DNA of 64,000 bases from Patescibacteria group bacterium (GCA_018819405.1 JAHJQF010000001.1:665676-729675); one strand, 5' to 3'; counted from the stretch's first letter, positions 6,639-62,192 are shown. Notes: generated from the sequence alone by a model not told the origin. A program made the numbers and translations.

Positions 6639-7088
6639 ATGAAAGTAGTATTAATTGAAAATATAAATTCTCTGGGCAAGAAAGGGGATATAAAAGATGT
6701 GTCCGATGGTTATGCGGCCAATTTTTTGTTGCCACATGGCCTGGTAGTTTTGGCTACCAGTGAAAATATCGCCAAGTGGCAGGCTCAGGAAAAACAAATT
6801 CAGCAAAATACAGATTTGCGTCAGGAAAATTATGATAAGATTGCCAAGACTCTCAACAAACAAAGTTTGACTTTTGCGGGTAAAGTATCGGAAAAAGATA
6901 TATTATTTCAAGGGATATCACCCAAGGACATCGTCACAAGTATCAAGGAAAAATTTAATCTTGATATCAATGAAAAATGGTTTGTAAAATCAGAACATTT
7001 CAAAACGACAGGTAGGCATTCTGTTTTTTTGAGACTACCAAACAATAAATTAATTAGTTTTTTTATTAATATTAACCCCGTTAAATAA
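6639..7088 (+). CDS. rplI: 50S ribosomal protein L9.
   Basis: MKVVLIENINSLGKKGDIKDVSDGYAANFLLPHGLVVLAT matches the L9 N-domain. Length is 149 aa. Confidence 0.9.
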   Translation: MKVVLIENINSLGKKGDIKDVSDGYAANFLLPHGLVVLATSENIAKWQAQEKQIQQNTDLRQENYDKIAKTLNKQSLTFAGKVSEKDILFQGISPKDIVTSIKEKFNLDINEKWFVKSEHFKTTGRHSVFLRLPNNKLISFFININPVK

Positions 7089-7208
7089 TAAATAGCTATG
7101 GCTATTTATTAAATTTAATTTATATTTGTGATTAGAGAGAATATGATTTATAATTTTATATATTCAATTAATTATAATTTCCCGTTATTAAATTTATTTA
7201 ACGGGGTT
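7074..7208 (+). repeat. Long-range inverted repeat bridging the rplI stop codon and the pyrG start codon. It is a variant of the stop/start stem-loop family.
   Basis: AACCCCGTTAAATAA at 7074-7088 includes the rplI stop TAA. It is perfectly complementary to TTATTTAACGGGGTT at 7194-7208, which lies 17 nt before the pyrG ATG. The loop holds a nested CCCGTTA..TAACGGG mini-hairpin. Confidence 0.5.
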
Positions 7209-7225
7209 AACGCAGCATAGTCAAT

Positions 7226-8833
7226 ATGGCCAAAACAAAATACATTTTCATAACCGGCGGTGTTTGCTCAGGATTGGGTAAGGGGATTGCTTCTGCCTCA
7301 ATTGGGGCAATACTCAAGTCAGCCGGTTATTCTGTTTTTACCAGCAAGCTTGATCCTTATCTTAATATTGATCCGGGTACCATGAGTCCTTATCAGCATG
7401 GGGAAGTATTTGTGACAGACGATGGTACAGAGACTGATCTTGATTTGGGTCACTATGAGAGATTTATAGATACGTCTCTCTCCAAGCTTTCCAATCTGAC
7501 AACTGGTCGGGTCTATGAAAAAGTGTTGCAAGGTGAAAGAAGTGGTACTTATCTTGGCAAAACCATACAGATTGTGCCGCACATTACCAATGAAATAAAA
7601 GATTATATCAGAAGGGCCGCTACAGAATCCAAAGCTGATTTTTTGTTGACCGAAATTGGTGGTACAGTCGGAGACATTGAAGGTGAGCCTTTTTTGGAAG
7701 CTTTGCGTCAGTTTCACAATGAAATGGGTGATGAAAATGTCATGTTTGTGCATTTGACACTTTTGCCATATCTGACAGCTTCAATGGAACTCAAGACCAA
7801 ACCAACTCAAATGTCTGTCAGAGAATTACACCGTCGGGGTATTCAGCCGGATATTATATTAGCTAGAAGTGATCTCAAAATTGGTCAAGATGAACTGTAT
7901 AAAATTGCTATGTTTGCTGATATTGATCCCAAAGCGGTCATACCAGCGCTGACAGTCAGTAGCATCTATGAAGTACCGCTCAATTTTGAAAAACATGGTC
8001 ACATCTCTGATATAATTTTCAAAAAAATGAATTTGCCAAAGAGAAAACCAAAGCTAGACGATTGGGAGGCACTTATCAAGCGTATCAAAACTACCAAAAA
8101 GAAATTGCCTATTGCCCTGGTCGGCAAGTACAACGAAAATATAGATGCTTATATCAGTGTGATAGAAGCTATCAAATCAGCCTGTTATCACAATGGTGTC
8201 AAATTAGATTTGGTTTGGATTCATTCCGGTAAGTTGGAAAAAGGTGACAAAAAAGAATACGACAAACTCAAAAAAGTAAAAGGTATTATTGTACCAGGTG
8301 GTTTTGGTCATCGTGGAGTAGAAGGCAAAATTATGGCTGCTAAATATGCCCGTGAAAACAAAAAACCCTATCTTGGTCTTTGTCTTGGTATGCAGGTAGC
8401 TACTATTGAATTTGCTCGCCATGTCTTGGGCACCAAAGATGCTAATAGTACTGAGTTTGACAAAAATACCAAAAATCCAGTTATACACATATTGCCAGGG
8501 CACACTGAAGACGAAGACAAAGGTGGCACCCTGAGACTCGGTGCTTATCCTTGTGTCTTGGATAAAGATTCGCTGAGCTACAAAGCTTATGGGGAGACTA
8601 AGATTTCCGAGCGTCATCGCCATCGTTATGAATTCAACAATGATTATCTAGAAGTACTGGAAAAAGCTGGTATGAGATTTGCTGGTATGAGTCCAGATGG
8701 CAAGCTGGTAGAAATCATAGAATACAAAGACCATCCATATTTTGTGGCATCTCAATTTCATCCGGAATTTAAATCCCGACCACTAAGACCACATCCACTA
8801 TTTCGAGATTTTATTAAAGCAGCTGTAAAATAA
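7226..8833 (+). CDS. pyrG: CTP synthase.
   Basis: The N-terminus KYIFITGGVCSGLGKGIASASIGAILK and the motif DPYLNIDPGTMSPYQHGEVFVTDDG match CTP synthase. The glutamine amidotransferase motif GLCLGMQ is present. Confidence 0.95.
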   Translation: MAKTKYIFITGGVCSGLGKGIASASIGAILKSAGYSVFTSKLDPYLNIDPGTMSPYQHGEVFVTDDGTETDLDLGHYERFIDTSLSKLSNLTTGRVYEKVLQGERSGTYLGKTIQIVPHITNEIKDYIRRAATESKADFLLTEIGGTVGDIEGEPFLEALRQFHNEMGDENVMFVHLTLLPYLTASMELKTKPTQMSVRELHRRGIQPDIILARSDLKIGQDELYKIAMFADIDPKAVIPALTVSSIYEVPLNFEKHGHISDIIFKKMNLPKRKPKLDDWEALIKRIKTTKKKLPIALVGKYNENIDAYISVIEAIKSACYHNGVKLDLVWIHSGKLEKGDKKEYDKLKKVKGIIVPGGFGHRGVEGKIMAAKYARENKKPYLGLCLGMQVATIEFARHVLGTKDANSTEFDKNTKNPVIHILPGHTEDEDKGGTLRLGAYPCVLDKDSLSYKAYGETKISERHRHRYEFNNDYLEVLEKAGMRFAGMSPDGKLVEIIEYKDHPYFVASQFHPEFKSRPLRPHPLFRDFIKAAVK

Positions 8834-8880: not shown

Positions 8881-8976
8881 TGGATAAAAATTGACAAAAG
8901 AAAACGGGTCGGGAATCGTGTGATTCCCGACCCGCAAGCGGACGTTTAGTCCATGAGTGTGGTCACATCATGTGGT

Positions 8977-9597
8977 TTATCTCATTATAAACCACATGAC
9001 AGTGACTATTGCCCAAGTGATGACATTGCCTAGCTCGCCAATAAATAGTCCTTTGGTACTCCTATCCCAACCTCCTTGGTGGGCGTTTATCCAGACTTGT
9101 AAAAATCTGGGGAAAGAAGTGATGTGACTGGCTATCAGAGAAACAGTGGGTAGACCTTCGGAACTACCGGCTTGGTAGATGACATAGGCCATCCATAGTT
9201 GAGGGATGCCTTTGCACCACATCGACAAAAAACCTTTGGCAACATCATCTTTATAACTGCCAAATTTGTAGATGGTTGTCATAGATAGTCCAGAGACTAA
9301 TATGACAACTATTGTGTCTCCGTGTTGCCAGCGAATAGATCGTATTCCGATGATAAACAATCAGGTAAAAATGGCGATAAATTGAATAAAAATACTGATG
9401 ATTCGGCGCCGATCTACCGTGGGATTGTTACGGTAGGAAGACACAGACAGAACTAGGCTAAAACACAGGTAGGCGACAAATAGCAGCCACAAGGCTAGGG
9501 TCAGCCCTTTTGTATGACCACTAAAGACCTGTATAGTCTGAAACAGAGCATAGGTCCAAGCCGCAATGACTTGGATCCAAAAGAGGATTCTAGTCAT
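8977..9597 (-). pseudogene. Small polytopic membrane protein (PQ-loop/SemiSWEET-like?) split by an in-frame TGA at 9361-9363. Either a pseudogene or a read-through gene.
   Basis: The 78-aa ORF (9361..9597) and the 127-aa ORF (8977..9360, TTG start) are contiguous and in frame, separated only by TGA. Together they give about 205 aa with multiple hydrophobic helices and a PQ dipeptide (KGIPQLWMAY). An SD (agaaaggccaaagtcATG) and a dedicated promoter lie upstream, and a hairpin plus T-run terminator lies downstream. Confidence 0.4.
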
Positions 9598-9646
9598 GAC
9601 TTTGGCCTTTCTCTTTGAGTTGGTAATGAAACAAAACGGACTAGCG

Positions 9647-9675
9647 ACTATATCATATTTTGTCTATTTTGTCAA
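9647..9675 (-). promoter_or_regulatory. Consensus sigma-70 promoter, TTGACA-N17-TATAGT, reading leftward into the membrane-protein gene.
   Basis: The reverse complement is TTGACA AAATAGACAAAATATGA TATAGT. The first 19 nt (TTGACAAAATAGACAAAAT) are duplicated at 10497-10515. Confidence 0.55.
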
Positions 9676-9764
9676 TGATAAATAATATAAAAAGAAAAAC
9701 CGTCTTGTATGAACAAGATGGTTTTTCTTGTTCACAACGACGGTTGGTGAGAGATCTACTTGGG

Positions 9765-10007
9765 TTAGCTCTCGGGAGTTTCCGACATGAGCTGGTCTTT
9801 GTTGTCCAGCAGTCGCTGGCGGACGATCAGAGCTTGCTCGCTCAAGTCTTCCAAGTAGTTGGCCAGCATCTCGACCGTGCAACTCGGACCAATGACACTC
9901 CGAACATCTCGGAGTATCCTCATGATATGGACCAGGTTGATGGAGGTGGAGAGTTCTTCGTTGGTTCCGACCTGTCGGAGCAGTTCGTAAGTGTGAATTA
10001 CTTTCAT
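9765..10007 (-). CDS. Hypothetical 80-aa protein, GC-rich. It has its own promoter, SD and terminator.
   Basis: It has a strong SD (aaggagatcactATG) and a promoter TTGACA-N17-TATAAA at 10059-10087 (minus strand). The terminator hairpin aaaaaccgtcttgtatgaacaagatggtttttc lies at 9697-9729. The overlapping plus-strand ORF 9660..10223 is judged spurious. Confidence 0.55.
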   Translation of the reverse strand: MKVIHTYELLRQVGTNEELSTSINLVHIMRILRDVRSVIGPSCTVEMLANYLEDLSEQALIVRQRLLDNKDQLMSETPES

Positions 10008-10139
10008 AGTGATCTCCTTGGTGGGTGTTTGTGGGTGGGAGGGAACTTTGTATATCTTTTTATATATTATTTAATACTTTTTGTCAATGAAAAAACCGCC
10101 TCACAAGAAGAACGGTTTTTCCCGTTGTTTGAGGGCGGT

Positions 10140-10434
10140 GTTTATTTGCCGAAGATTTCAGCGATATTTCGGCTGATTTCATCACCGGTCAGGGGACATA
10201 GCTCCTTGATGTTGATGGTATAGCCTTCTTGGTTGGTGGTCAGACCTTTTTCCAGGTAGTACCCCCAGCGTACTTGATGCATTTACGGTAGCCTTCGGGC
10301 GCTTGGTTGTGGCAACTACTGGAAATAATGATGCGTAGATTCCGATCAAGTAGCCAGGTGGCTGAAGGCGCCAAATCGCGCTGGTTGATTGTACGGCCAC
10401 ACTGTTTGGTGCAGCCACAGTTGTAGGTGTCCAC
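10140..10434 (-). pseudogene. Cys-rich small protein gene (about 97 aa) disrupted by a 1-nt frameshift in a C5/G5 homopolymer at 10261-10265.
   Basis: A GTG start with an upstream aggaaag SD gives MDTYNCGCTKQCGRT..SSSCHNQAPEGYRKCIKYAGG. The +1 frame then continues YYLEKGLTTNQEGYTINIKELCPLTGDEISRNIAEIFGK and stops with TAA directly before a terminator hairpin at 10089-10122. One extra G in the run would restore a single ORF. Confidence 0.45.
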
Positions 10435-10488
10435 GTCTTTCCTTTCCGGTGATTTGGTGTGGTGGTTGGTACATAAATAATTATTATT

Positions 10489-10515
10489 TCTATAACATTT
10501 TGTCTATTTTGTCAA
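10489..10515 (-). promoter_or_regulatory. Promoter module for the Cys-rich gene. It duplicates the -35 box and spacer of the promoter at 9647-9675.
   Basis: The reverse complement is TTGACAAAATAGACAAAAT GT TATAGA. It shares an identical 19-mer with the other promoter, but here the spacer is 15 nt. Confidence 0.45.
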
Positions 10516-10618
10516 TATAATAGTAAGCTGAGTTGATTTTTTTTCTTATAAATGGGAAAATATTAGAAGTATTAGTGTTGCTAAAATAGGAGATTTCTTA
10601 AAAAATCAGTTTTTCTTT

Positions 10619-11815
10619 ATGCTAAAAAAAATAGTTGTTACAGTTTTGATAATAATATTTTCCTTGGCCGCTTATTTTGGCGGTCAAGCACTTTATTGGT
10701 ATATCAAAAGTGCTCCAGAGCGCGCTTTGGGAAAAGCTCAGGCTCAGGCTGTAGAGGATTTGCTTGTTTTACGTCGGAAAGAGCAGTTGACTAATAGTCA
10801 GGATAATCCTTTTAATGATAATGGCCGAGTTAGTATTCTTTTTATTGGTTTGGACAAGCGAGCAAGCGATGACAATTCTGGACATTGTGATGCTATCCAG
10901 CTGATAGAAATTGATAAAAATATTAATCAAGTGATGATAACAGCTGTGCCAAGGGGTACTTATTCGCCTCTGCCACTGGGCAAGGGCGCGACCTCATCTG
11001 ATTATTATATTTCTAATGCCTGTGATCTGGGTGGTTTGGAATATGGTATCAAACAAATTGAAAAAGTATTGGGCAAAAAGGCTGATTATCTGGCTATAGT
11101 TGGTTTTTCTCAAACTCTAGGTATTTTGCGTAATTTGCAATTGCCGGCAGTGGATACTTTGCGTTGGCTACGCCATCGTCAGAGTTATGCAGTTGGTGAG
11201 CCTCAAAGAGCCCATAATCATTCCACTTTTATCAAGCAAATGGCTCTCAAATATCTAAGTAACGATATTTCTAAAATAGATTTGGCTTGGCAGTATTTAC
11301 TTTACAAAAAAGTGCAGACTGATTTGAGTTTTGACCAAGTAAAAATAATAGTGCGGGCGCTCTCAGAAATGGGCTTGGCGCAAAATCCAGACAATATCAA
11401 ACTTGCTATGCAGCCACCTTATGTAGTAGATGATATTAGCTATGATCCGGAAAATCTAGGCGCTTATCTGGATTCAAGACTGGAGCCAATAAAGCATTTA
11501 TTGTCAGTGGCTGACTATCAAGGACTGGATCAGGAGACGGTGCAGCAAAAATTGCTAGCTAGTATTACAGACCAAAAAGATAATCCCGAGTTTGTCACTT
11601 GGGCTTATCAAAATTATCTTTGGCAGCAAATAGATGATGAAGATTTGCGCTATCAGAATCAATACGATTTACTAGTAGCTTATTTAGATACGATGGAGGA
11701 GGCTAGTGAGCGCCAGGCAGTAATTGGTGATTATATTTTGGAAATGGAATATTATGGAGAAGATTTTTGGGTTCAGGCTGGTCATGAGCTTTTACTCTAT
11801 GAATTGGGTTATTAA
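10619..11815 (+). CDS. LytR-CpsA-Psr (LCP) family cell-envelope phosphotransferase/attenuator.
   Basis: An N-terminal transmembrane segment is followed by VSILFIGLDKRASDDNSGHCDAIQLIEIDKNINQVMITAVPRGTY..CDLGGLEYGIKQIEKVLGKKADYLAIVGFSQTLGILRNL, which matches the LCP domain pattern. Confidence 0.75.
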   Translation: MLKKIVVTVLIIIFSLAAYFGGQALYWYIKSAPERALGKAQAQAVEDLLVLRRKEQLTNSQDNPFNDNGRVSILFIGLDKRASDDNSGHCDAIQLIEIDKNINQVMITAVPRGTYSPLPLGKGATSSDYYISNACDLGGLEYGIKQIEKVLGKKADYLAIVGFSQTLGILRNLQLPAVDTLRWLRHRQSYAVGEPQRAHNHSTFIKQMALKYLSNDISKIDLAWQYLLYKKVQTDLSFDQVKIIVRALSEMGLAQNPDNIKLAMQPPYVVDDISYDPENLGAYLDSRLEPIKHLLSVADYQGLDQETVQQKLLASITDQKDNPEFVTWAYQNYLWQQIDDEDLRYQNQYDLLVAYLDTMEEASERQAVIGDYILEMEYYGEDFWVQAGHELLLYELGY

Positions 11816-11854
11816 ATTTTTAAACAAGATAAAATATAAATAAAGAATAAAATT

Positions 11855-12604
11855 ATGTATATCTCTCTAGATATCGGTGCTACCAATACCCGTATGGCAG
11901 CTAGTCAATCTCTAGATGATGTCCAGTTGACTGCTAAAACTATTTTCCCGACCAATCAATTTTTTGAGTCTGGTATCTCAGAAATTATAATAAAAATCAA
12001 AAAAATTTCAGAACATCCTGAAGCAATTGGTATTGGGATTGCTGGTCGGGTGTCTGAGGGTGAACTGGAGGCCTCTACTAATCTGCCGGATTGGGTAAAT
12101 AAAAAATTAGTCAAAAGACTAAACAATGAATTTGATTGTCCGGTTTATATAGCCAATGACGCTGTGGCTCAGGGTTTGGCGGAAGTTTATTTTGGTCACG
12201 GCTTAAAAGAAAAATTTTTGTATCTGGTCTTAGGTACCGGCTTGGGAGGAGCTATAGTAGATGGTCAAAGTAAAAAAGCGGGCTCTATAAAATTTGATAG
12301 GGAGTTTTTGAGGACTTGGGAGCAAAAATTTGGTGGCAAGAATATAAAAAACATATTTGGCAAATCAGCTGAAAATTTGTCAGACAGCCAGTGGCAAATA
12401 GTGACTGATGATTTTAGCGATTGTATCAAAGATTTGTCTAGTAGAGTGTCGGTAAAATATATTATCTTAAGTGGTGGTATGATAGATAAACAAAAAGATA
12501 GATTTGTCAGGGCTTTATCTAATATCCAAAAGCCAAAGATTTTGTTTTCGGACTTGAGAGATGATATTGGATTATATGGTAGTTTAGCTTTGATAAAAAA
12601 ATAA
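11855..12604 (+). CDS. ROK/BadF-type sugar kinase (glucokinase or N-acetylglucosamine kinase-like).
   Basis: The motifs ISLDIGATNTRMA, ANDAVAQGLAEVYFG and LVLGTGLGGAIVDG match ROK-family kinases. Confidence 0.65.
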   Translation: MYISLDIGATNTRMAASQSLDDVQLTAKTIFPTNQFFESGISEIIIKIKKISEHPEAIGIGIAGRVSEGELEASTNLPDWVNKKLVKRLNNEFDCPVYIANDAVAQGLAEVYFGHGLKEKFLYLVLGTGLGGAIVDGQSKKAGSIKFDREFLRTWEQKFGGKNIKNIFGKSAENLSDSQWQIVTDDFSDCIKDLSSRVSVKYIILSGGMIDKQKDRFVRALSNIQKPKILFSDLRDDIGLYGSLALIKK

Positions 12605-12635
12605 AAAACAACCCGTCGGGTTGTTTTTTTGTTGT
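12603..12635. terminator. Bidirectional intrinsic terminator shared by the convergent ROK-kinase and speH genes.
   Basis: The sequence is aaaaaacaacccgtcgggttgttttttt. Confidence 0.55.
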
Positions 12636-12992
12636 TTATCCTCTATATATATTATGAAATTTCATTTTTTTACCTTTGAAAAAATCTCGGCAAAACTTTT
12701 TGGCTTTTGGTGTAGAAAATTTCTTGCAGCTAAAGATATCAATAAAGACCCGATTGTATATTTCGTCACAATGTACAGTGATATTTGATGTTTGTATCAG
12801 CTGTACAGCTGTATTGCCTTCTAGGTCACCGTCGCCAAACCTTTTGACTATTGGTTTTCCATAAGGAACCATATCAATTTCTTTACACAGATCCAGGCAG
12901 AATTTTCCCAATCCCTTTTTATTAGTAATTGGCTCCCTGTCACAGTCGTAAAGATCAATGGACAAAAGCTGTCCCCAGATTTTTTTATTCAT
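12636..12992 (-). CDS. speH: Pyruvoyl-dependent S-adenosylmethionine decarboxylase proenzyme (SpeH-type).
   Basis: LLSIDLYDCDREPI aligns with the LVAEFYECDREVL region. NTAVQLIQTSNITVHCDEIYNRVFIDIFSCKK aligns with [32 protein letters not shown], and the processing Ser is retained. Length is 118 aa. A TTGATA-N17-TAAAAT promoter lies upstream. Confidence 0.75.
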   Translation of the reverse strand: MNKKIWGQLLSIDLYDCDREPITNKKGLGKFCLDLCKEIDMVPYGKPIVKRFGDGDLEGNTAVQLIQTSNITVHCDEIYNRVFIDIFSCKKFSTPKAKKFCRDFFKGKKMKFHNIYRG

Positions 12993-13117
12993 CTCTTTTA
13001 CATAAAATGCTAAAAGCTTAGTTAATTAAATGTTTGATAATTTTAGCAGAAAGATTTTAAAATATCAATACTTTTTGGGTTATTTGTGGATATCTTTTTA
13101 AAATCAGGGGGAGTATA

Positions 13118-13192
13118 ATGAAAATATGGAAAAGATCAATGATATATGTTACTATGTTTAATAGATTAGATCATTATAATAGGATATATTAA
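13118..13192 (+). CDS. Candidate 24-codon mini-ORF (MKIWKRSMIYVTMFNRLDHYNRIY) with a strong SD. Speculative.
   Basis: It has an SD of the form cagggggagtataATG, which is unusual in this SD-poor backbone. A palindromic hairpin (ctagccaaggtggctag) plus a T-run follows directly. It sits immediately upstream of the repeat-peptide gene. Confidence 0.2.
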   Translation: MKIWKRSMIYVTMFNRLDHYNRIY

Positions 13193-13300
13193 GAAAATCT
13201 AGCCAAGGTGGCTAGGTTAAAGCAACTCTTTTTTTGAAAGGAGGATTTTGTCAGAAGACAGTGCCGCTTTAAACCCTCCACCCCACCTGGAGAGAAAACC

Positions 13301-13609
13301 ATGAAGAAAGTGTTGTACATCGTCATTTTCGCGCTGTTTTCATATTCGCTGGCCTTGGCCGGCGATCCCATCGATGGCAACGACGAGCCGATGAGGTCTG
13401 CTACGACCACGTCTGTGGCCGGCGATCCCATCGATGGCAACGATCATCCGATGAGGTCTGCTACGACCATGTCTGTGGCCGGCGATCCCATCGACGGCAA
13501 CGATCATCCGATGAGGTCTGCTACGACCACGTCTGTGGCCGGCGAACCCATCGACGGAAACGACGGACCGGTATATCTGTGGCAGGTGATTTTCTACCTG
13601 CTGTTCTAG
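13301..13609 (+). CDS. Secreted repeat peptide. A signal peptide is followed by 3.5 copies of a 20-aa unit (A)GDPIDGNDHPMRSATTTSVA and a hydrophobic C-tail VYLWQVIFYLLF.
   Basis: An SD (ggagagaaaaccATG) precedes it. The cleavage site looks like SLALA|G. The repeats are perfect in-frame 60-nt copies, and a terminator hairpin (ggggcacctattagctagtaggtgccc) plus a T-run follows. The locus is GC-rich and the antisense ORF is judged spurious. Confidence 0.6.
   Translation: MKKVLYIVIFALFSYSLALAGDPIDGNDEPMRSATTTSVAGDPIDGNDHPMRSATTMSVAGDPIDGNDHPMRSATTTSVAGEPIDGNDGPVYLWQVIFYLLF
13358..13570 (+). repeat. Tandem direct repeat: three complete 60-nt units (13358-13417, 13418-13477, 13478-13537) and a partial fourth copy.
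   Basis: The unit is gccggcgatcccatcgatggcaacgatcatccgatgaggtctgctacgaccacgtctgtg, with 2-4 substitutions per copy. Confidence 0.9.
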
Positions 13610-13710
13610 AGCCGGCATCAATCCAACCGGGGCACCTATTAGCTAGTAGGTGCCCTGTTTTTTATTATAAACTATAGCTACTATTGTGTTATATTGTTTA
13701 TTTTTGCAAA

Positions 13711-13739
13711 TTGACAATAAACTAATTTTATAGTATTAT
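13711..13739 (+). promoter_or_regulatory. Sigma-70-like promoter for tRNA-Gln(TTG), TTGACA-N17-TATTAT.
   Basis: TTGACA lies at 13711-13716 and TATTAT at 13734-13739, about 20 nt before the tRNA 5' end. Confidence 0.5.
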
Positions 13740-13759
13740 ATCTGCGTATTTTGAACTAT

Positions 13760-13833
13760 TCGGGGATCGTCTAATGGTAGGACAACGGGTTTTGGTCCCG
13801 TCAATCGGGGTTCGACTCCCTGTCCCCGAGCCA
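13760..13833 (+). tRNA. tRNA-Gln (anticodon UUG), with CCA encoded.
   Basis: The cloverleaf was folded by hand. The acceptor stem is tcgggga/tccccga with the U1-A72 pair characteristic of bacterial tRNA-Gln. The D-stem is gtct/ggac. The anticodon stem is acggg/cccgt with loop ttTTGgt. The T-arm is cgggg-ttcgact-ccctg. The discriminator is G and CCA follows. Confidence 0.9.
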
Positions 13834-13961
13834 AACGAACAAGGTGAGTGTAGGCTCGGGTTAAAAAAATCCGAGTCGAAGACGAGGTTCCTAAGATGCT
13901 GTGCAATAGCACAGCGCCCCGAGCCAAACGAACAAGGTGAGTGTAGGCTCGAGTTAAAAAA
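13834..13961 (+). other. Conserved tRNA-Gln 3' trailer module of 93 nt ending in a copy of the tRNA 3' end (GCCCCGAGCCA), followed by a 35-nt partial tandem repeat of its own 5' part. A hairpin terminator follows at 13962-13992.
   Basis: The module 13834-13926 is about 89% identical to 57353-57445, downstream of the second tRNA-Gln. It contains the hairpins cccgagcc..ggctcggg and gctgtgcaatagcacagc. The segment aacgaacaaggtgagtgtaggctcg(g/a)gttaaaaaa occurs twice, at 13827-13866 and 13927-13961. Confidence 0.5.
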
Positions 13962-14052
13962 TAGATGAAATTTATATTTCATTTTTTTATTTGTATATTT
14001 TTTTATTAGATGATAAAATTTAAATCAAGATTGTTAATTCTTATATTATTTT

Positions 14053-14271
14053 ATGGCTAAGAAAAAATTAACTTTGAGTTATTTGGTGGATAATCTTTTT
14101 ATTGTAGTTGGTCTTGTTTTAATTTGGCGGGGCGTTTGGTATATATTGGATGCATTGGATTTGTTAATTTTCAATGGTAATCATTCTTGGACAGCTTTAG
14201 GTGGTGTTGTTTTGGGTTTGTTGATATTGTATTTGCCTGATAAAGATTTGAAAGAAATTAGTAAGTTGTAG
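14053..14271 (+). CDS. Small hypothetical membrane protein, 72 aa with two hydrophobic helices.
   Basis: The ORF contains LFIVVGLVLIWRGVWYIL and ALGGVVLGLLILYL, and an intrinsic terminator (cagagctcttgggctctgtttttt) follows it. Confidence 0.45.
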   Translation: MAKKKLTLSYLVDNLFIVVGLVLIWRGVWYILDALDLLIFNGNHSWTALGGVVLGLLILYLPDKDLKEISKL

Positions 14272-14427
14272 TGAATAAAGATTTTTTTAGGAAAATAAAT
14301 TACAGAGCTCTTGGGCTCTGTTTTTTGTTCCTATTATATTGACATAATAAGTTATTTATATTATAGTTAAATGTTAATTTAGGCACTTTGAAAAGTGAGT
14401 GTTTTCAAAACAGAGGGAGGCAGTAAA

Positions 14428-15609
14428 ATGCGCGCTAGCACAAAGAAAAGTCAGTTTGTCGCCTTGTTTGTTGTTTTTTTGGTCATGGCCATTGGTTTTG
14501 GCTCTGGCTTTGGAAGCGATGAACAGGTGATGGAAATTTGGCACTGGCAAGAGGATTGGCGTCTGGGCGGAGAAGACGAGAGTTTTATCTTCGCCTCAAT
14601 TAGCAAGGTGCTTTTGGGTCATGACAACAATTTGTACATCTTGGATGGCAGAAGTTCCAAGATTTATGTTGTTGCTGTTGCCGATGGCAAGCACCAAAGA
14701 ACCATCAGCATTTCTGGCGAAGGGCCAGGTGAGCTCAGTTTTTCCGGCAATATGTTTTTGATGGGTGATGAGCACATTGGTCTTTTGCGGACCACTCCGG
14801 CCAAAATCGTCTATATTGATTACCAAGGGAAACCTGGGCCAAGCATTTACTTGAATGAGAATCCTTCTGGCATGTTTCTCTCTACCTTTGCCAAATGGCA
14901 AAATGGTATATTGGTTATTGCCGGAAGCAATTCTATTCCCGGAGAAACTTGGCTCGGCCAATACGTTGAGTATGGTGAGAAGTTTCGTTATGTCAACTAT
15001 CCTTTGCGTTCCTTGTTTCTTGAACAAAAGTTAGTGGAAGAGGATACCTATTTTTACTCTTACAAACCTTGGGATCTTGATAAAGATGGCAATCTTTATC
15101 TTGCTCCTTATTGGGGTGATAAGAGTAAAAATGAATATCACTTCAATGTATATGACACGCAGGGGAAAAAGCTACGAGAGATCAGTCATGAATTTGAGCC
15201 ATACGAGCGTTCAAATGAGGAGAAACGCTTGGCAAAGGCTTCACTTGTGGGCGGTGTCGAGGACTTGAAGATGATGGAGAGCTTGGGCGGTGAATGTGTA
15301 GTTGAAGATATTGCGCCAAATATCTTTGACATTACCATTCACTCTGATGGTAGGATTTGGGTGGAAACCAGTCGTAGCGCAAAGAATCAGCCCGAGGGCA
15401 TATTCAAAACCTACGACATTTTCCTGCCAAGTGGCGAGTTTTCCCATCGGGTAGCGCTAGCTTTGCCGGCCAACGGAGAAAAAGACATAGTTTACTTTAT
15501 TTCTGACGACCAGCTCATTGTGGTCAAAGGCCAAAAAGATATATTGAGTTTTGGCGCGTATCCGGATGCCGATGTTTTGGAAATTATTTGCTACTCTCTA
15601 TCAAGGTGA
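14428..15609 (+). CDS. Secreted hypothetical protein (about 393 aa) with a signal peptide; possibly a beta-propeller fold.
   Basis: The SD gagggaggcagtaaaATG places the start at 14428; the track ORF begins earlier, at 14395. The N-terminus is MRASTKKSQFVALFVVFLVMAIGFGSG. GC content is moderate. No family was recognised. Confidence 0.5.
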   Translation: MRASTKKSQFVALFVVFLVMAIGFGSGFGSDEQVMEIWHWQEDWRLGGEDESFIFASISKVLLGHDNNLYILDGRSSKIYVVAVADGKHQRTISISGEGPGELSFSGNMFLMGDEHIGLLRTTPAKIVYIDYQGKPGPSIYLNENPSGMFLSTFAKWQNGILVIAGSNSIPGETWLGQYVEYGEKFRYVNYPLRSLFLEQKLVEEDTYFYSYKPWDLDKDGNLYLAPYWGDKSKNEYHFNVYDTQGKKLREISHEFEPYERSNEEKRLAKASLVGGVEDLKMMESLGGECVVEDIAPNIFDITIHSDGRIWVETSRSAKNQPEGIFKTYDIFLPSGEFSHRVALALPANGEKDIVYFISDDQLIVVKGQKDILSFGAYPDADVLEIICYSLSR

Positions 15610-15734
15610 TAGAGAAAGGAGGTCAAGAGAGGTCAATAAGTATATTGGCCTCTCATTTTTTTTGATCAAAAAAAGAGGACTCGTTTGTAACAGTGACGAG
15701 TCCCCGGAAGAAGTGTCTGGCGCCGAGTTGGTGT

Positions 15735-16058
15735 TTAGGCGCGCAGATGATAGGTGGTCACGGTGTCGCCGGCGTCGTCGACCTCGATAATAGTCGTTTC
15801 TTCGACGTTCTCCGCGGGACCTTGCACGAAGTCCCATTCCCATTCCTGGCCCTCCAGCTGCATGTAGGCCAGACACATCGCGTTCCAGCCCCAGGACTCC
15901 CAGTTGTGCTCCTCGGCTGCTGTGCAAGCGACCGGAAGCAAATCCTGCTCCTGGGTCTCCGAGGAGACAACAGCGGCCTCACTGGTCTGAGGCATGATCA
16001 TGATGATGACACCGATCGCCAAGAAGGCGATGAGTGCCATCGTGGTGAGCTTCTTCAT
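15735..16058 (-). CDS. Small secreted Trp/Glu-rich hypothetical protein (107 aa, signal peptide), GC-rich.
   Basis: The sequence is MKKLTTMALIAFLAIGVIIMIMPQTSEAAV.. with an upstream SD (gggaagagaggaagagATG). Bidirectional hairpins lie downstream at 15625-15735. The overlapping ORFs 15601..15927, 15693..16124 and 15758..15982 are judged spurious. Confidence 0.45.
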   Translation of the reverse strand: MKKLTTMALIAFLAIGVIIMIMPQTSEAAVVSSETQEQDLLPVACTAAEEHNWESWGWNAMCLAYMQLEGQEWEWDFVQGPAENVEETTIIEVDDAGDTVTTYHLRA

Positions 16059-16145
16059 CTCTTCCTCTCTTCCCTTTGGGGTTGGCGGTTACTTGGAATT
16101 TACTATAAGTCTCCTTTGTTCTAGAGTGACGGCCACAATGTAATC

Positions 16146-16805
16146 CTAGGGTGTTTTTGCGGCCAGTGTACCAACGATTCCTATTCTAGTTGGGTCTATG
16201 TCCAAGCCAATGAGTTGGTATTGGCTGTACTTTTTGGGTAAACGGACATAAACAGCATTGGGCCGTTTATTGTAATCCGGTTTATTGTTGAATTGCCGGT
16301 TGAAGACAATAGTGCTTTGCCTTGAATCGTATGGCTTGCCCACATTGCCTTCATAGTAAACAGCTAGACAACCAAGGTCATCGGTTTCCACAATAGAGCT
16401 GTCTGGCGTCAAAAATCGGAAGTGAAAGGCTTTTTGAGAGATATTGATGTCTACTCCATCTTTGATGAAAAATCCTAGGACATAGAAAGCAAAATTTTGC
16501 TTTCTGATTTCCCGTCCCATCATGATTTCCAAGGGGCGGGTCCTTGGTAACGTAGCATCAAACTGTGCGAGCACATCGCTAGGTGCGTTCATACCACGCA
16601 GAGTTTCTTTTTTGTCTGCCATCTGGCTTTCAAACTTGGCGATGTTGAACCAACCGCCCTTGACGATTTTGAAGGAGCTGGTGCTGACCAGCTCATTGTG
16701 GTGGGACTTGGTGGTTGCCTGTGTTTGAATTTGTTGATTGGTCACAGCACAGGCCGAGACCAAAAACACACTTGCCAGCAGGATGATATGTAGAAGGCGT
16801 TTCAT
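16146..16805 (-). CDS. Putative lipoprotein of unknown function.
   Basis: The SD aagaggagctaaaATG precedes it. The signal peptide ends in a lipobox (LVSAC). A promoter-like TTGACA lies upstream at about 16905, minus strand. GC content is moderate. Confidence 0.6.
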   Translation of the reverse strand: MKRLLHIILLASVFLVSACAVTNQQIQTQATTKSHHNELVSTSSFKIVKGGWFNIAKFESQMADKKETLRGMNAPSDVLAQFDATLPRTRPLEIMMGREIRKQNFAFYVLGFFIKDGVDINISQKAFHFRFLTPDSSIVETDDLGCLAVYYEGNVGKPYDSRQSTIVFNRQFNNKPDYNKRPNAVYVRLPKKYSQYQLIGLDIDPTRIGIVGTLAAKTP

Positions 16806-16924
16806 TTTAGCTCCTCTTAGGTCCCAAAAAGAACCTTTTGCTTCAGGGTTAGAGAGTTATTTCAAAGGACCATTCACTTATATCTTTATCATTTTCTTTG
16901 TTTTTTGTCAATATTTAAAAAAAG

Positions 16925-16975
16925 GGGGACTCGCCGTAGCCGGGGGGAATTGGCTACAAATGGCGAGTCCCTGTG
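16925..16975 (-). terminator. Intrinsic terminator on the minus strand, downstream of the response-regulator gene.
   Basis: The stem is gggactcgcc..ggcgagtccc. On the minus strand it is followed by cccttttttt. Confidence 0.5.
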
Positions 16976-17161
16976 CTACCCTCTAGAGGCAGCATTATTA
17001 GCAGTTAAGTATTGACTAACTGCGCAGAGGATAAATGAACATTTTTTCTGGTGGGCTACTTCCTGAGCCACCAGAACAGATAAATGAGCGCCAGACTCAT
17101 CTCATAATGCATGCCGCATTTCCTTTCGTGTGTCTGGGGTTATTTTTCCCCTAGCCAACAA

Positions 17162-17576
17162 TCAGCAGGAAACGGCCAGGAAAGTTTCAATGTACTCCAC
17201 AAAGTGCAGGACATTGAAGGGCTTGGGGAAAAAATGCGCTCCGTAGAGCTTCAACAGGTGTTCGATTTTCTTGGTCTTTTTGTGGCCGACGAGGATCACC
17301 GAACAATTTTTGCCCAGCTCCATGTCGTAGATAAGACCGCAGAGCCAGTTTCCGTCGATACGCTCGGCTTCGGCGATGACCACGTCCGGGAAAGGTCGTG
17401 TCTGGATCAACAACCCGATGACATCGACTGCACTGGTGACCAACTTGGCTTGTTTGTCCTGATTGGACCAGACGATGTTGGCGAGTACTTCATGACCAGC
17501 ACCACTGGTTTCCAGAGCGTGACGAAGGGTCTTGATGGTGTCGGCGTTGTCGTCGTAGATGAAAATGCGAGACATG
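17162..17576 (-). CDS. Single-domain CheY-like response-regulator receiver protein, possibly atypical at the phospho-acceptor position.
   Basis: The SD ataggaggtcccaacATG gives MSRIFIYDDNADTIKTLRHALE..PDVVIAEAERIDGNWL..KPF. The acidic pocket DD and the conserved Lys (KPF) are present. By alignment, the usual phospho-acceptor Asp appears to be Glu (VIAEAE). The track ORF 17162..17659 begins further upstream. Confidence 0.55.
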
Positions 17577-17655
17577 TTGGGACCTCCTATGTTCTGATTT
17601 GGCAAAACAAAAAAACGTCCCAACAATGAGACATTTTGTGTACGCCAAACCAGCG

Positions 17656-17889
17656 TCAATGCCGGTTGCGCTACTGACTCCCCATTGCCCTTGTCTCGAC
17701 ACTAAGTCGGACTAAGCGCCCAATTAATAGGCAACGGTTCTTCGTCTCATTGATTTTATAGAATCCTTTCTGTTTTGAAAGAGCTTGATTTATCAAAAAA
17801 ACACCTTTTTGAGGCGTTCCGACAAATCAAGCATCTGTTGCTTTGTTAATGTCGGTTACGCTACTAGCTCCCGACTGCCCTTAGCCTCG
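17656..17889. repeat. Two imperfect 43-nt direct repeats (17656-17698 and 17847-17889) flanking a 12-bp-stem hairpin (gcttgatttatc..gacaaatcaagc). They lie in the roughly 400-nt leader of the response-regulator gene.
   Basis: caatgccggttgcgctactgactccccattgcccttgtctcg and taatgtcggttacgctactagctcccgactgcccttagcctcg match at about 33 of 43 positions. A minus-strand promoter TTGACA-N17-TACTAT lies at 17987-18015. Confidence 0.4.
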
Positions 17890-18064
17890 GTTGGATTTAT
17901 TCCTTAGAATAATTTACCGGGCACAAGCGTCCAAATTACAGACAGTCATTCATTGCTCCATTGGTATTTTATTGTAAATTTATGACATAGTAGCACATAA
18001 TAAAATATTTGTCAAGAGTAGACAAATTGAAAAAAAGACCATTTTGTGGTATATTTGAGCCATA

Positions 18065-18153
18065 TGAATCCCGTTAGAAATTTACAAACTTTTGATGGGA
18101 TAAAATATTTAAAGTGTTTTAATAATTTTACTTAAATTTCTAACGGGATGAAA
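18065..18153 (+). repeat. Stop/start-bridging inverted-repeat element, copy A. The 5' arm is TGAATCCCGTTAGAAATTT. A 42-nt loop is followed by the 3' arm AAATTTCTAACGGG ATG AAA.
   Basis: The stem is 16 bp and perfect. The 3' arm ends in the start codon at 18148. An extended -10 element (TGgTATATT, about 18050-18060) puts the likely transcription start at the 5' arm. Confidence 0.75.
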
Positions 18154-23732: not shown

Positions 23733-23749
23733 TTTTGTTAAAATGACTC

Positions 23750-23782: not shown

Positions 23783-23794
23783 GTATCTAAAATT

Positions 23795-27000: not shown

Positions 27001-27083
27001 TAAAATAATTTATTTTTATGAGCAGAGAAAAACAAATAAAAATTTCTAATCCCGTTAGAGGTTTAGCTATAGACGGGACTAAG

Positions 27084-52622: not shown

Positions 52623-52625
52623 ATC

Positions 52626-58375: not shown

Positions 58376-58515
58376 CTATAAGCATTTATGTGCAAGCTGC
58401 TTATTTTTACCTTTTAGGCTTTAGAGTAATAATTTATTTATTCAAACACCATCCCTATAGGGATGGTGTTTATTATTAGTTACCAAATTTATGATTTTAC
58501 GCTATACTATAGTAT

Positions 58516-59250: not shown

Positions 59251-61329
59251 ATGGCAAAAATCAAAAGAAAAAAAAGAGAGAATACTAAAAATAAAGGTAT
59301 GCTAAACCTTTTAAAAAATAAATTTGGACTTACACCGCTATATCTGATGTTTTTGATCCTTTTATCAGCCGTAGCTTTGGTGATTATAATATCAAATGTT
59401 GACAATGACTCGACTAAAAGTATTGTAAAAAATTTCCCTATTTTAAATAACAATCATAACACTGAACTCAAAAAATTTGCTTCAGCTGAAGAATTTGAAG
59501 ATTATCTACAAAGCAGTGAAGATATCAGTGGCTCTTACAATATGATGGGTATCAGAAATATAGCCATGCCTATGATGGAGGAGTTTGCCATGGATTCGGC
59601 TGTAAAAACTGATTCAGCTATAGGCACTGGTGGCGCCTCATCAATGCCTAATAGGATTTCTGAGACAAATGTCCAGGTTTCTGGCATTGATGAGCCTGAT
59701 ATCCTAAAAACAGATGGAAAAGAAATCTATTTTTCAAATGCTGATACTTACTACTGGCGTATGATGCCTGAGGCGATCCTAGATGTAGAAAGTGATGCTA
59801 TTTTGCCTAGGCCGGATGTATATTATACAACCAAACTATTTAATGCTTGGCCACCTAATGATCTAAAGCTTGATTCAGAAATTAATCTATTGGGAAATCT
59901 ACTTTTATCTGACAACAATCTAATGATACTTTCTGGACAAAGGGTTGATACCTTTGATGTTTCAAATAAGGAAAATCCCGAACAAAAATGGGAATTAAAG
60001 CTTGATAGCCGTAGCAGTATTGTGACTTCACGATTATACAATAACAAATTATATTTGATAGTGCAGAATCCTCTCAATCGCTATAATCCTTGTCCTATTA
60101 TGCCATTATCTATTGGTGGTAGTGATTTAAAAATTGCCTGTACTGATATTTATCACCCTATAAACCCCAGTCCAGTTGATGCGACTTTTGTGGCTATGGT
60201 CATCAATCCTGAAAATGGCCAGGTAGAAAATAAAGTATCCTTTTTGGGTTCGACTTATTCCTCAACTGTCTATATGTCCCAAAAAAATCTATATGTGACA
60301 TATAATGACCAAATTGATATGTTTGAGTTTATGCTAGAATTTTTAAATACAGAAGTTAAAGATTTGCTACCACAAAGTGTCCTAGCCAAATTAAATAAAA
60401 TTAATACTTATGATATTAGTTCAAATTCCAAAATGACTGAAATGCAAATACTTTTGGAAGAATGGCTGTCTTCTACCAATGATGATCAATTACTAAAATT
60501 AGAAAGTGAACTAGAAAATAGAGCTGATAAATATTTTGAGGAACATAAACGCCAAATGTACGGCACAGGTATTGTAAAAATTGGTTTGAATAAACTAGCT
60601 ATTGAAGCTAATGGACGAGTTCCCGGTACTTTGTTAAATCAATTTTCTTTGGATGAATATGATGACCATCTACGAGTAGCTACTACAGTCGGCAATCGTT
60701 GGGGATTTGGTATGTCTGGAGCAGTAGAAGAAGCTAATGATGTCTATGTGCTAGATAAAAATCTTAAGACAGTCGGATCTGTCACTGACTTGGGATTATC
60801 AGAGAGGATATATTCAGCTCGTTTTGTAGGTCCAAATGGATATTTAGTCACCTTTAGACAGACCGATCCATTTTATGTGATTGATCTAAGTGACCACAAA
60901 AATCCAAAAATGGTGGGTGAATTAAAAATTCCTGGTTATTCATCGTACTTACATCCAATATCTGATACTAAAATACTTGGAATTGGCATGGAAGGTGGAC
61001 AGGTAAAAATATCATATTTTGATGTTTCCAATCCGACAGAACCAAAAGAAATTGACAAATATAGTCTGAGTGATTATGGTTCTGATGCTCTTTATAATCA
61101 CCATGCCTTTTTATTAGATTCAAAACACCAAGTATTTTTCTTACCTTCTTACAAAGGCGGCTACGTATTTTCTTATGCCAATGACAAACTGGAGCTAGTC
61201 AGAGCAGTCAGCGTAAATAATGTAAAGCGAGCTTTGTATCTGGAGGATTATATGTATATTGTAGCTGATGAATATATGGCCATACTTGATGAAAACAATT
61301 GGGAAAAAGTAAATGAAATTGATTTCTAA
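59251..61329 (+). CDS. Large hypothetical membrane-anchored extracytoplasmic protein, 692 aa.
   Basis: There is one transmembrane segment (LYLMFLILLSAVALVIIISNV). The remainder is predicted beta-rich. No family was recognised. Confidence 0.45.
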   Translation: MAKIKRKKRENTKNKGMLNLLKNKFGLTPLYLMFLILLSAVALVIIISNVDNDSTKSIVKNFPILNNNHNTELKKFASAEEFEDYLQSSEDISGSYNMMGIRNIAMPMMEEFAMDSAVKTDSAIGTGGASSMPNRISETNVQVSGIDEPDILKTDGKEIYFSNADTYYWRMMPEAILDVESDAILPRPDVYYTTKLFNAWPPNDLKLDSEINLLGNLLLSDNNLMILSGQRVDTFDVSNKENPEQKWELKLDSRSSIVTSRLYNNKLYLIVQNPLNRYNPCPIMPLSIGGSDLKIACTDIYHPINPSPVDATFVAMVINPENGQVENKVSFLGSTYSSTVYMSQKNLYVTYNDQIDMFEFMLEFLNTEVKDLLPQSVLAKLNKINTYDISSNSKMTEMQILLEEWLSSTNDDQLLKLESELENRADKYFEEHKRQMYGTGIVKIGLNKLAIEANGRVPGTLLNQFSLDEYDDHLRVATTVGNRWGFGMSGAVEEANDVYVLDKNLKTVGSVTDLGLSERIYSARFVGPNGYLVTFRQTDPFYVIDLSDHKNPKMVGELKIPGYSSYLHPISDTKILGIGMEGGQVKISYFDVSNPTEPKEIDKYSLSDYGSDALYNHHAFLLDSKHQVFFLPSYKGGYVFSYANDKLELVRAVSVNNVKRALYLEDYMYIVADEYMAILDENNWEKVNEIDF

Positions 61330-62172
61330 ATGTCGGATGAAATATACCTAAATAAAAGCCAAGAACAAAAGGACTATTACAACCAAACAGCCTCATCTTA
61401 TGATAGATGGCATATTGATCCAGCTAGCGCTAAAGTGGTTGATTTATGGAATTTTGATAATTTAGCCAAATTTTTGGCTAATAAAAAAATTACCAAGGCC
61501 TTGGAACTTGGTTCTGGTACAGGACGTCTAGCTAATAATCTATTTAAGATAGCTAAAAATGTGTATGGTATAGACGCTTCCGAAGCAGTACTCAAAATAG
61601 CCCAAGAAAAATATCCCCAATTAAAATTGACTTGTGGCGAGGTGGTAAATTTACCTTATCAGAATAATTTTTTTGATCTGGTCATTATAAACGGATCTTT
61701 GCACCATTTTTTTGCTGTAGAAAAAACTTTTCAAGAAGCTTACCGTGTATTAAAACCAGGCGGGGCATTTGTGCTGCTAGGTGAGCCTAGTTCTCAATTT
61801 TTAAAAGCTTATAATCCGTTTTTTTATTTTTGGGTTTTAAATAGATTAGTGGCAAAAATATTTAGTTTGCTCTTTGGCCAAAAATTTAATAATGAAATTA
61901 TAGAGCCTGATGCGGAGAGTTATAAACCTTGGCTTTTAAAAAAACAACTACAAAAGGCTGGGTTTTACACCCACGCTTTTTATACTTATGATTATTTCAA
62001 TAGGTCAAACAACAAACTCTGGCTAAAAATATATCGCTCATACCTAAATTTTGAAAACAAAACAATTGCCAAAATTTTTCCATACCTTGGTATGGCCATT
62101 CAAGCTTTTACTATTAAAAAATTAACCCCGCACCTTTTGCCGGGGGATAAAATAATAAAAGATAATAATTAA
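61330..62172 (+). CDS. Class I SAM-dependent methyltransferase.
   Basis: Motif I is ALELGSGTGRLANNL. FDLVIINGSLHHF and VLKPGGAFVLLGEP are also present. Confidence 0.75.
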   Translation: MSDEIYLNKSQEQKDYYNQTASSYDRWHIDPASAKVVDLWNFDNLAKFLANKKITKALELGSGTGRLANNLFKIAKNVYGIDASEAVLKIAQEKYPQLKLTCGEVVNLPYQNNFFDLVIINGSLHHFFAVEKTFQEAYRVLKPGGAFVLLGEPSSQFLKAYNPFFYFWVLNRLVAKIFSLLFGQKFNNEIIEPDAESYKPWLLKKQLQKAGFYTHAFYTYDYFNRSNNKLWLKIYRSYLNFENKTIAKIFPYLGMAIQAFTIKKLTPHLLPGDKIIKDNN

Positions 62173-62192
62173 TCGCACAAAAGGTGCGGGGT
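62124..62192 (+). repeat. Long-range inverted repeat AACCCCGCACCTTTTG (inside the methyltransferase 3' end) paired with CAAAAGGTGCGGGGT (ending 5 nt before the ddl ATG). It is a TTAACCCCG-class junction hairpin.
   Basis: The stem is 15 bp and perfect. The loop is about 36 nt and contains the upstream stop TAA. The 3' arm covers the region just upstream of the ddl start. Confidence 0.5.

Follow-up and report, generated by a model that had tools for sequence, protein, structure and literature searches.

The stretch considered here, 64,000 nt from a Patescibacteria group bacterium (the window; JAHJQF010000001.1:665676-729675), contains two long inverted repeats that span the boundaries of neighboring genes: one links the end of rplI, which encodes L9, to the start of pyrG, and the other the end of a methyltransferase gene to the start of ddl (gene identities were confirmed with Pfam). 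The rplI-pyrG repeat pairs 7072-7088 (TTAACCCCGTTAAATAA) with 7194-7210 (TTATTTAACGGGGTTAA) perfectly over 17 bp around a loop of 105 nt; the 5' arm contains the rplI stop codon (7086-7088), and the pyrG ATG follows at 7226, 16 nt beyond the 3' arm. In the methyltransferase-ddl repeat 62125-62139 (ACCCCGCACCTTTTG) pairs with 62178-62192 (CAAAAGGTGCGGGGT), perfectly over 15 bp and extending to 20 nt at 95% over 62120-62197, with the methyltransferase stop codon at 62170-62172 and the ddl ATG at 62198, 6 nt beyond the 3' arm. Both structures had been noticed in a sequence-only reading of the window, and their perfectly pairing arms are indeed present, although that reading placed the ddl 3' arm 2 nt off, at 62176-62190. 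As detailed below, both are very probably the inverted repeats at the ends of two small mobile elements, non-coding and 131 nt and 66 nt in length, which resemble MITEs, miniature inverted-repeat transposable elements, as generally defined (PMC11602168), entered this lineage by separate insertions and belong to one superfamily.

Chance does not account for the repeats: the window holds four inverted repeats that pair perfectly over 15 bp or more around a loop no longer than 150 nt, whereas 200 first-order Markov simulations that kept the dinucleotide frequencies gave a mean of 0.035 and a maximum of 1 in any simulation. In all four the 3' arm ends 0-16 nt upstream of a plus-strand start codon, positions that make up 1.9% of the window. 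The two long stems dominate their predicted RNA folds (rplI-pyrG, -41.2 kcal/mol, z = -4.8; methyltransferase-ddl, -31.0 kcal/mol, z = -4.85). The 9-mer TTAACCCCG by itself is not enriched, with 7 matches at no more than one mismatch against 9.4 expected in the window.

The nature of the rplI-pyrG structure became apparent from the comparison with the related loci L001, L003 and L004, whose PyrG proteins are 89-91% identical to that of the window: here rplI and pyrG are separated by 5-6 nt without any insert, and the empty site holds a single TTAA/ATTAAA. The junction reads ...ATTAATATTAAATCAGCATAGTCAATATG in L001 and ...ATTAATA(TTAA)CCCCGTTAAATAA...TTATTTAACGGGG(TTAA)CGCAGCATAGTCAATATG in the window, which therefore carries a 131-nt insertion with a duplicated TTAA. 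This element, the pyrG type, occupies 7076-7206 between the left (7072-7075) and the right (7207-7210) TTAA copy, the latter placed by alignment with L001 (...TTAAATCAGCATAGTCAATATG); directly after it the native pyrG leader CGCAGCATAGTCAAT continues unchanged. Its 13-nt arms, CCCCGTTAAATAA (7076-7088) and TTATTTAACGGGG (7194-7206), match perfectly and reach 17 bp once the TTAA copies are included. The nested mini-hairpin of CCCGTTA and TAACGGG reported by the sequence-only reading is likewise present: a subterminal CCCGTTA on the plus strand at 7181-7187 pairs with TAACGGG of the right arm at 7199-7205, and judged from this subterminal repeat the family orientation of the element is the minus strand. 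Moreover, the insertion has changed the upstream protein: The L9 alignment holds up to residue 145, after which NPVK* in the window (...INI-NPVK*) replaces the KSA* of the relatives (...INI-KSA*). Within the element a promoter-like TTGTGA-17-TATAAT faces pyrG (7126-7154, plus strand; 10 of 12 consensus positions); it is a consensus match only, since shuffles of this AT-rich stretch contain on average 2.3 such sites per 300 nt.

The methyltransferase-ddl junction tells a similar story. In L005, L006 and L007, relatives labelled Komeilibacteria whose Ddl proteins are 69-85% identical to that of the window, the methyltransferase gene ends 2-11 nt before ddl and there is no insert, while the window carries a 66-nt element, the ddl type, at 62126-62191 with perfect 14-nt arms CCCCGCACCTTTTG (62126-62139) and CAAAAGGTGCGGGG (62178-62191), or 15 bp with the flank. 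The methyltransferase aligns through residue 264; the relatives, 264-271 aa long, all stop after ..IKK, whereas the window protein runs on through 16 element-encoded codons to 280 aa. On the left the element is flanked by TTAA (62122-62125), where L005 reads AAAAAATAACTATG, and on the right by TAAA (62192-62195), followed by the ddl ATG. The left TTAA has probably arisen from a TAAA, a common duplication in this family (23 of its 67 copies with an exact repeat): in the simplest history, insertion at TAAA (AAA AAA TAA A) would have come first, and a single A>T in the left copy would then have abolished the original TAA stop. A close copy of this element in another locus, L222 (3220-3281), has a perfect TTTA duplication.

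Four further elements of the window, containing two perfect and two imperfect repeats, belong to what the sequence-only reading had called the canonical element (CCCGTTAGAAATT), with arms (C/T)CCNGTTAGAAATT and AATTTCTAACGGG(G/A) in all four copies (18069-18148, 22148-22219, 37236-37326 and 42913-42983, all in plus-strand orientation). Each is flanked by TGAA on both sides, the left TGAA being part of ATGAA and the right TGAA providing, with the last base of the element, the start codon of the downstream gene, ATG or GTG. With its flanks, the first copy spans 18065-18152: its left ATGAA is the old start and its A+TG junction the present start of a 535-aa gene, whose site is empty in L003 (ATGAAAATATC), and the two proteins align from M1. 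The second (22144-22223 with flanks) separates a PduL-type phosphotransacylase gene from ackA, with the upstream stop TGA within ATGA and a junction GTG; in L003 the two genes overlap by ATGA and lack the insert. The third (37232-37330) lies between mreB and a GT4 glycosyltransferase gene, and the fourth (42909-42987) between two GT4 glycosyltransferase genes. Overall, the flanking duplications in the window are TTAA/TTAA once, TGAA/TGAA four times and TTAA/TAAA once. Four window insertion sites are empty in relatives, and a relaxed scan for such elements yielded none in 113 kb from the closest relatives as compared with six in the 64-kb window.

The kinship of the two long hairpins with each other and with the canonical element, which the sequence-only reading had proposed, is borne out by common features: all end in CCC(C)G, the two long hairpins in CCCCG...CGGGG, and all have a flanking duplication of 4 bp, TNAA. 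The identical 10-mer it had seen at both 5' arms, ATTAACCCCG (7071-7080 and 62121-62130), does precede both of them and is thus explained as target duplication plus conserved element tip. With the canonical family the pyrG copy has in common the arm start CCCCGTTA and the subterminal CCCGTTA repeat, while differing in its greater length and opposite orientation. Across the superfamily, the termini follow 5'-(C/T)CC(C)G...C(G)GG(G/A)-3', the duplication is 4 bp and mostly TNAA (TGAA, TAAA, TCAA, TTAA), the arms are complementary within a copy and different between families, and the interior is short, variable and AT-rich.

Both families extend far beyond the window. A scan of one genome per species with GTTAGAAATT-N35-65-AATTTCTAACNGG retrieved at least 120 loci of the canonical family, and a metagenome scan with CCCCGCACCTT-N30-60-AAGGTGCGGGG at least 120 loci of the ddl-type family; all family counts that follow are counts among the matches listed. 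By their titles, the canonical matches come from many lineages of Patescibacteria and, beyond these, from Pirellulales, Omnitrophica, Elusimicrobia, KSB1, Ignavibacteria and others, a host range in which some genome bins may be mis-binned, and the GC content of their loci runs from 30% to 57%. We analyzed 112 canonical copies with arms of 14 nt, including the four from the window: An exact direct repeat of at least 4 bp abuts the arms in 81 of them (exactly 4 bp in 77), compared with 15% for randomly paired flanks, and these repeats are TGAA/TTCA in 51 cases, TAAA/TTTA in 13 and varied in the remainder. For the ddl type, a 4-bp repeat is exact in 67 of 122 copies (TGAA 28, TAAA 23, TCAA 13). 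Copies measure 55-85 nt, and further arm variants with the same ends and duplications occur (CCCCGTTAC, CCCCGCACT, CCCCGCGCC and CCCCGCTCT). The TGAA-flanked ddl-type copies mostly have CCTTCT arms, which gives GGAGAAGG as the right-arm sequence; in the TAAA- and TCAA-flanked copies, and equally in that of the window, the arms have CCTTTT. Among the 51 oriented canonical copies, an inner GGG/CCC repeat lies 10-15 nt from one arm in 35, and the terminal base pair covaries, C-G or T-A, in 48. Aligning these 51 copies revealed conservation in the arms alone and -10-like boxes at no fixed position; a conserved interior promoter was therefore rejected. Likewise, sense-strand G-U pairs are not in excess over A-C mismatches in the arms, where too few positions are free to vary, and we rejected RNA-level selection on the stem on these two grounds.

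Some loci of this collection show particular arrangements. In L165 (about 1478-1560) and L059 (about 2350-2440) elements stand in tandem with one common 4-bp duplication (...CGGGG TGAA CCCCG...), which implies repeated insertion at the same start-codon site. The loci L205 (8458-10247) and L103 (2486-4733) contain inverted repeats of 140-166 nt, 99% complementary, around segments of 1.5-1.9 kb, one of which encodes a 519-aa open reading frame (ORF); these bracketed segments could represent a larger element, mobile or invertible, or else an artefact of assembly. Element sequence is also being annotated as coding, as follows from element-derived peptides in predicted proteins: in L052 a penicillin-binding-protein-like minus-strand ORF (4891-6651) starts with ...MNPVRHYRSADGVKRNKNVMSNGVKKW, and in L181 a repeated ORF contains an internal ...HPVRKSFSNGV....

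The TGAA-flanked copies are placed at start codons with a precision that target preference alone does not explain. In the canonical family, all 51 such copies have NTGAA on the left (ATGAA in 47), and their right junction carries ATG or GTG, which in 47 of the 51 is the very start of an ORF of 60 codons or more; in only 13 does an upstream ORF also end on the TGA. The 28 TGAA-flanked ddl-type copies follow the same placement without exception, giving 79 out of 79 in both families together exactly on start codons. In the window, 18 gene starts read NTGAA as compared with 50 intergenic TGAA/TTCA sites; a 4-bp preference combined with survival is thus insufficient to account for 79 of 79. Furthermore, the interior often holds an ATG that is open through to the right arm. 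In canonical copies it shares the frame of the downstream gene in 28 of 51, as opposed to 1 and 6 for the other two frames, which yields N-terminal extensions ending in ISNG(V/M), and in ddl-type copies it favors the frame that stops on a TGA overlapping the junction GTG (11 of 28). From this frame specificity we conclude that translation of the downstream gene is under selection around the insertions. In front of the 535-aa gene, about 8 nt upstream of its ATG, a -10-like box is situated both in the window (TGGTATATT, 18040-18066) and in L003 (TATATTAT, 14195-14223), and its position suggests leaderless or near-leaderless mRNAs. Such mRNAs would fit the depletion of Shine-Dalgarno motifs: GGAG, GAGG or AGGA at -20 to -4 is found in 3 of 46 window genes against a background of 9%, in agreement with the sequence-only reading, which had called the genome poor in these motifs.

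Taken together, the structures are short and non-coding (131 and 66 nt), end in inverted repeats, are flanked by a duplication and are present or absent at orthologous sites, as is typical of MITEs. Insertions present in the window and absent from relatives come with duplications and altered protein C-termini, and the families are multi-copy and widely distributed; the superfamily is apparently widespread and undescribed. A literature search returned no paper containing the arm sequences or describing MITEs in the candidate phyla radiation, and a census of MITEs in prokaryotes from 2024, based on RefSeq genomes, leaves Patescibacteria unmentioned (PMC11602168). The insertion points are the last codons or the stop region of rplI and of the methyltransferase gene, in pairs of genes whose original spacing was only 2-6 nt, and the hairpins lie beside start codons because they were inserted at the stop/start region of tightly packed gene pairs. 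Mobilization would have been carried out by a trans-acting cut-and-paste transposase making 4-nt staggered cuts, for which the piggyBac/IS1380 type fits best by its design. Only copies that leave both flanking genes expressible would then have survived, and the elements would for this reason be found where genes end and start. In the mRNA, a stable stem would form from the arms; as the upstream ORF now runs through the 5' arm, translating ribosomes should open it, finishing 5-105 nt before the 3' arm, so that pyrG could still use its native leader and ddl its start. In addition, a promoter may be supplied by the pyrG copy, but any regulatory effect of the elements would be secondary.

Several observations weigh against this assignment to MITE-like elements. 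Neither the window nor the 1.75 Mb of fetched loci contains a transposase or an autonomous element with these ends: long-range arm pairs turned out to be separate small elements or the unrelated 140-166-nt repeats, Pfam revealed no transposase in the variable island of the window at 8.9-16.8 kb, and clustering of 830 long ORFs from 240 loci produced housekeeping families only. A viral contig collection had no element matches, leaving carriage by phages unsupported. In the same 1.75 Mb the pyrG-type arm CCCCGTTAAATAA is seen only once and the interior of this element has no second occurrence, and the ddl copy has an imperfect duplication with one mismatch between its TTAA and TAAA flanks. The combination of highly variable interiors with near-invariant arms is atypical of a recent MITE burst, although the search patterns had themselves fixed the arms. 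Finally, the arms differ among families and yet stay perfectly complementary. This pattern of family-specific but pairing arms could mean that structure rather than sequence is recognized, by a mechanism other than that of a classical DDE transposase.

Such a mechanism, for example a nuclease or recombinase that recognizes the structure of DNA hairpins, or a route by way of RNA, would be in line with the missing transposase, with arms that vary beyond the first 5 nt while complementarity is kept, with the covarying terminal base pair and with a start-codon targeting far tighter than a 4-bp target would give. We nevertheless judge it unlikely: an exact duplication of 4 bp is what marks staggered cutting by a transposase, systems of the HUH and REP type are not known to produce a duplication, and the piggyBac superfamily also retains only the CCC end of its inverted repeats (PMC10813416). 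Of a different kind is the proposal of the sequence-only reading, a host system of GC-clamped junction stems that serve transcript processing (for example as RNase III sites) or present start codons in the place of Shine-Dalgarno motifs. Stable stems that end beside start codons, the scarcity of these motifs and the frame-specific interior ATGs, by which translation matters near the elements, speak in its favor. That reading had, however, named conservation of the hairpins at orthologous junctions beforehand as a point on which its proposal would stand or fall, and the hairpins are missing from these junctions in all seven loci of the closest relatives, where the genes lie 2-11 nt apart; as target duplications flank the hairpins, unrelated genes from many phyla carry the same arms, the insertions have damaged L9 and the methyltransferase at their C-termini and the arms show no bias to sense-strand G-U pairs, we consider a host-encoded system very improbable.

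A role acquired after insertion is easier to entertain, even if we regard it as rather doubtful: mobile insertions could since have been co-opted, by giving pyrG a new promoter and by stems that gate translational coupling, the downstream start opening only if the upstream ORF is translated through the 5' arm. The promoter-like site facing pyrG would suit this, and so would the fact that both upstream ORFs cover the 5' arm, with the L9 stop inside it and the methyltransferase reading to 5 nt before the 3' arm, a read-through probably created by the single A>T in the left TAAA copy; elsewhere in the families, the frame-specific interior ATGs and the mini-ORFs ending on the junction GTG point the same way. 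Promoter-like hexamers are, however, as common in shuffled AT-rich DNA as stated above, the -10-like boxes have no fixed position across copies, and lineage-specific insertions lie beyond conservation testing. An intrinsic terminator or attenuator between the genes, comparable to pyrG attenuation in Bacillus, would make use of the alternative partners of the pyrG 3' arm (distal 7076-7088 or proximal CCCGTTA at 7181-7187), but is the least credible of these explanations: no T-run follows either long stem, the stems continuing instead into TTAACGCAGC and TAAATTATG, a terminator scan of 7000-7300 and 23650-23850 found no terminator-like site, and the structure is missing in relatives. We also rejected two more specific candidates. 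Integron attC sites do not apply, for the GTT/AAC order of the arms is the reverse of attC R''/R', the neighbors are housekeeping genes and there is no cassette array. Translational bypassing of the T4 gene 60 or mitochondrial byp type was dismissed although the repeated TGAA resembles take-off and landing sites: with no stop after the first ATG and a junction codon that is itself a start, bypassing is unnecessary.

Among known mobile elements, those of the IS1380 group end in CC and duplicate 4-5 bp of their target. They are the prokaryotic relatives of the piggyBac superfamily, which duplicates a 4-bp TTAA, rarely TAAA, TCAA or CTAA, and whose inverted repeats diverge except for a conserved 5' CCC (PMC10813416). 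The window elements resemble both in their 4-bp TNAA duplication and their CCCCG/TCCCG termini, a resemblance of design only; they differ in having TGAA as the main target and in the missing transposase noted above. Correia elements of Neisseria (CREE/NEMIS) are short, non-coding and multi-copy, form a long hairpin in mRNA, duplicate TA and contain promoter-like sequences. Here, too, we are dealing with short non-coding hairpins at gene junctions whose presence differs among relatives and which combine a duplication with promoter-like sequence, but the sequences are different, the duplication is a 4-bp TNAA instead of TA, what the families have in common at their ends is limited to the first ~5 nt while interiors are unconserved, and the elements lack a known parent insertion sequence and reside mostly in uncultured Patescibacteria. 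REPINs, which are mobilized by RAYT transposases, have a conserved GTAG head and are not known to make a target duplication. REP/REPIN sequences and our elements are alike in being short, palindromic, hairpin-forming repeats of intergenic DNA with many copies, but the exact 4-bp duplication and the CCCCG heads set the latter apart from REP/REPINs. The canonical and ddl-type copies at start codons, with interior ATGs that are in frame or coupled to the gene, recall the upstream repeats of Neisseria (REP2) and Borrelia (PMC3184786); REP2, however, has no terminal inverted repeats and no reported duplication, and the two long hairpins of the window lie at stop regions. Palindromic repeats fused to ORFs (Rickettsia palindromic elements, RUP, BOX, BRE) are tolerated within coding regions or at their ends, and extend genes at the 3' or 5' side (PMC3184786). 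The altered L9 and the 16 additional methyltransferase residues are a parallel to this. The Rickettsia palindromes are inserted in frame inside ORFs and are not known to come with a clear duplication, whereas elements of the window type mostly sit at exact gene boundaries.

Two further junctions had been counted as variants of the long hairpins. The recJ leader hairpin, TTTAAACCCCC-9 nt-GGGGGTTTAA (23753-23782, plus strand; arms 23753-23763 and 23773-23782; -15.8 kcal/mol, z = -3.4), does lie 12 nt before the ATG at 23795 as described, but it is not a short version of the elements: it has a C-run at the loop end, neither a T-run nor a flanking duplication, and starts 9 nt after a promoter-like TTGTCA-17-TGTTAAAAT (23716-23744). 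In L003 the corresponding position of the recJ leader, downstream of TTGTCA-17-TACAAT, is taken by another hairpin, of 6 bp. The window hairpin is best read as a promoter-proximal 5'-terminal leader stem-loop unrelated to the elements. The degenerate junction upstream of the lipoprotein gene, on the other hand, reads as a composite of such elements, as had been supposed. Within 27041-27082 (plus strand), which includes AATTTCTAA|TCCCGTTAGAGG at 27041-27061, a right-arm remnant AATTTCTAA (27041-27049) lies downstream of an interior-type ATG at 27018 and is followed by a 29-nt mini-element TCCCGT...ACGGGA (27050-27078) between CTAA at 27046-27049 and CTAA at 27079-27082. The predicted fold of this composite is not significant (z = -0.8), and it looks like decayed element debris; the true start of the lipoprotein is likely the GTG at 27087 (VKIKKYFILLL...).

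At the gathering threshold, Rfam matches in the window are confined to RNase P, a c-di-GMP-II riboswitch and two tRNAs, and E-value scans of the elements gave only chance matches to miRNA-like hairpins. The c-di-GMP-II aptamer (17651-17758, minus strand; 59.7 bits against a gathering score of 53.5) lies directly upstream of a minus-strand ORF (17659-17162) in this small Patescibacteria genome. The bacterial RNase P RNA of class A (38534-38963, plus strand; 187 bits) explains the long GC-rich inverted repeats at 38486-38930. A variable island of about 9.3 kb (about 8900-18100; GC 0.40; tRNA-Gln at 13760) stands in place of the 2.6-kb PMT_2/Zip segment that L003 has between pyrG and the 535-aa gene, and Pfam on ten ORFs of the island detected no integrase and no transposase. 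A perfect 18-bp overlapping palindrome, AAACACCATCCCTATAGGGATGGTGTTT, occupies the intergenic region before a prenyltransferase-like gene (58444-58471).

For the window itself, recent insertions of mobile elements replace the regulatory story by a simpler one, and they correct the annotation: The C-terminus of L9 and 16 residues of the methyltransferase are element-encoded, and several N-terminal 'ISNGV' or 'MNPVRN' peptides of proteins from uncultured bacteria are likewise element-derived. The start-codon precision and the superfamily are an interesting by-product of the analysis. More tentatively, and with clear reservations, we propose that a TNAA/CCC(C)G superfamily of piggyBac/IS1380-like miniature elements has spread over Patescibacteria and other uncultured phyla, and that its TGAA members are portable modules of translation initiation or control with a mechanistic start-codon targeting. 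These members would interrupt ATGAA, retain the former ATG in a short upstream ORF and restore an ATG or GTG from the last base of the element and the duplicated TG; many copies would bring along an in-frame interior ATG or a coupled mini-ORF, and the targeting, for instance to open promoter complexes of leaderless genes, would go beyond survivorship. The 79 of 79 start-codon copies among the matches listed, together with their frame-selected ATGs, constitute a natural experiment in which a stable start-codon hairpin in genes without a Shine-Dalgarno motif or a leader is tolerated or exploited. The streamlined ~1-Mb genomes of Patescibacteria are thought to be poor in repeats. A MITE-like superfamily that invades one lineage and is absent from its nearest relatives, with arms nearly identical across many phyla among the matches listed, bears on genome dynamics and horizontal exchange in uncultured groups.

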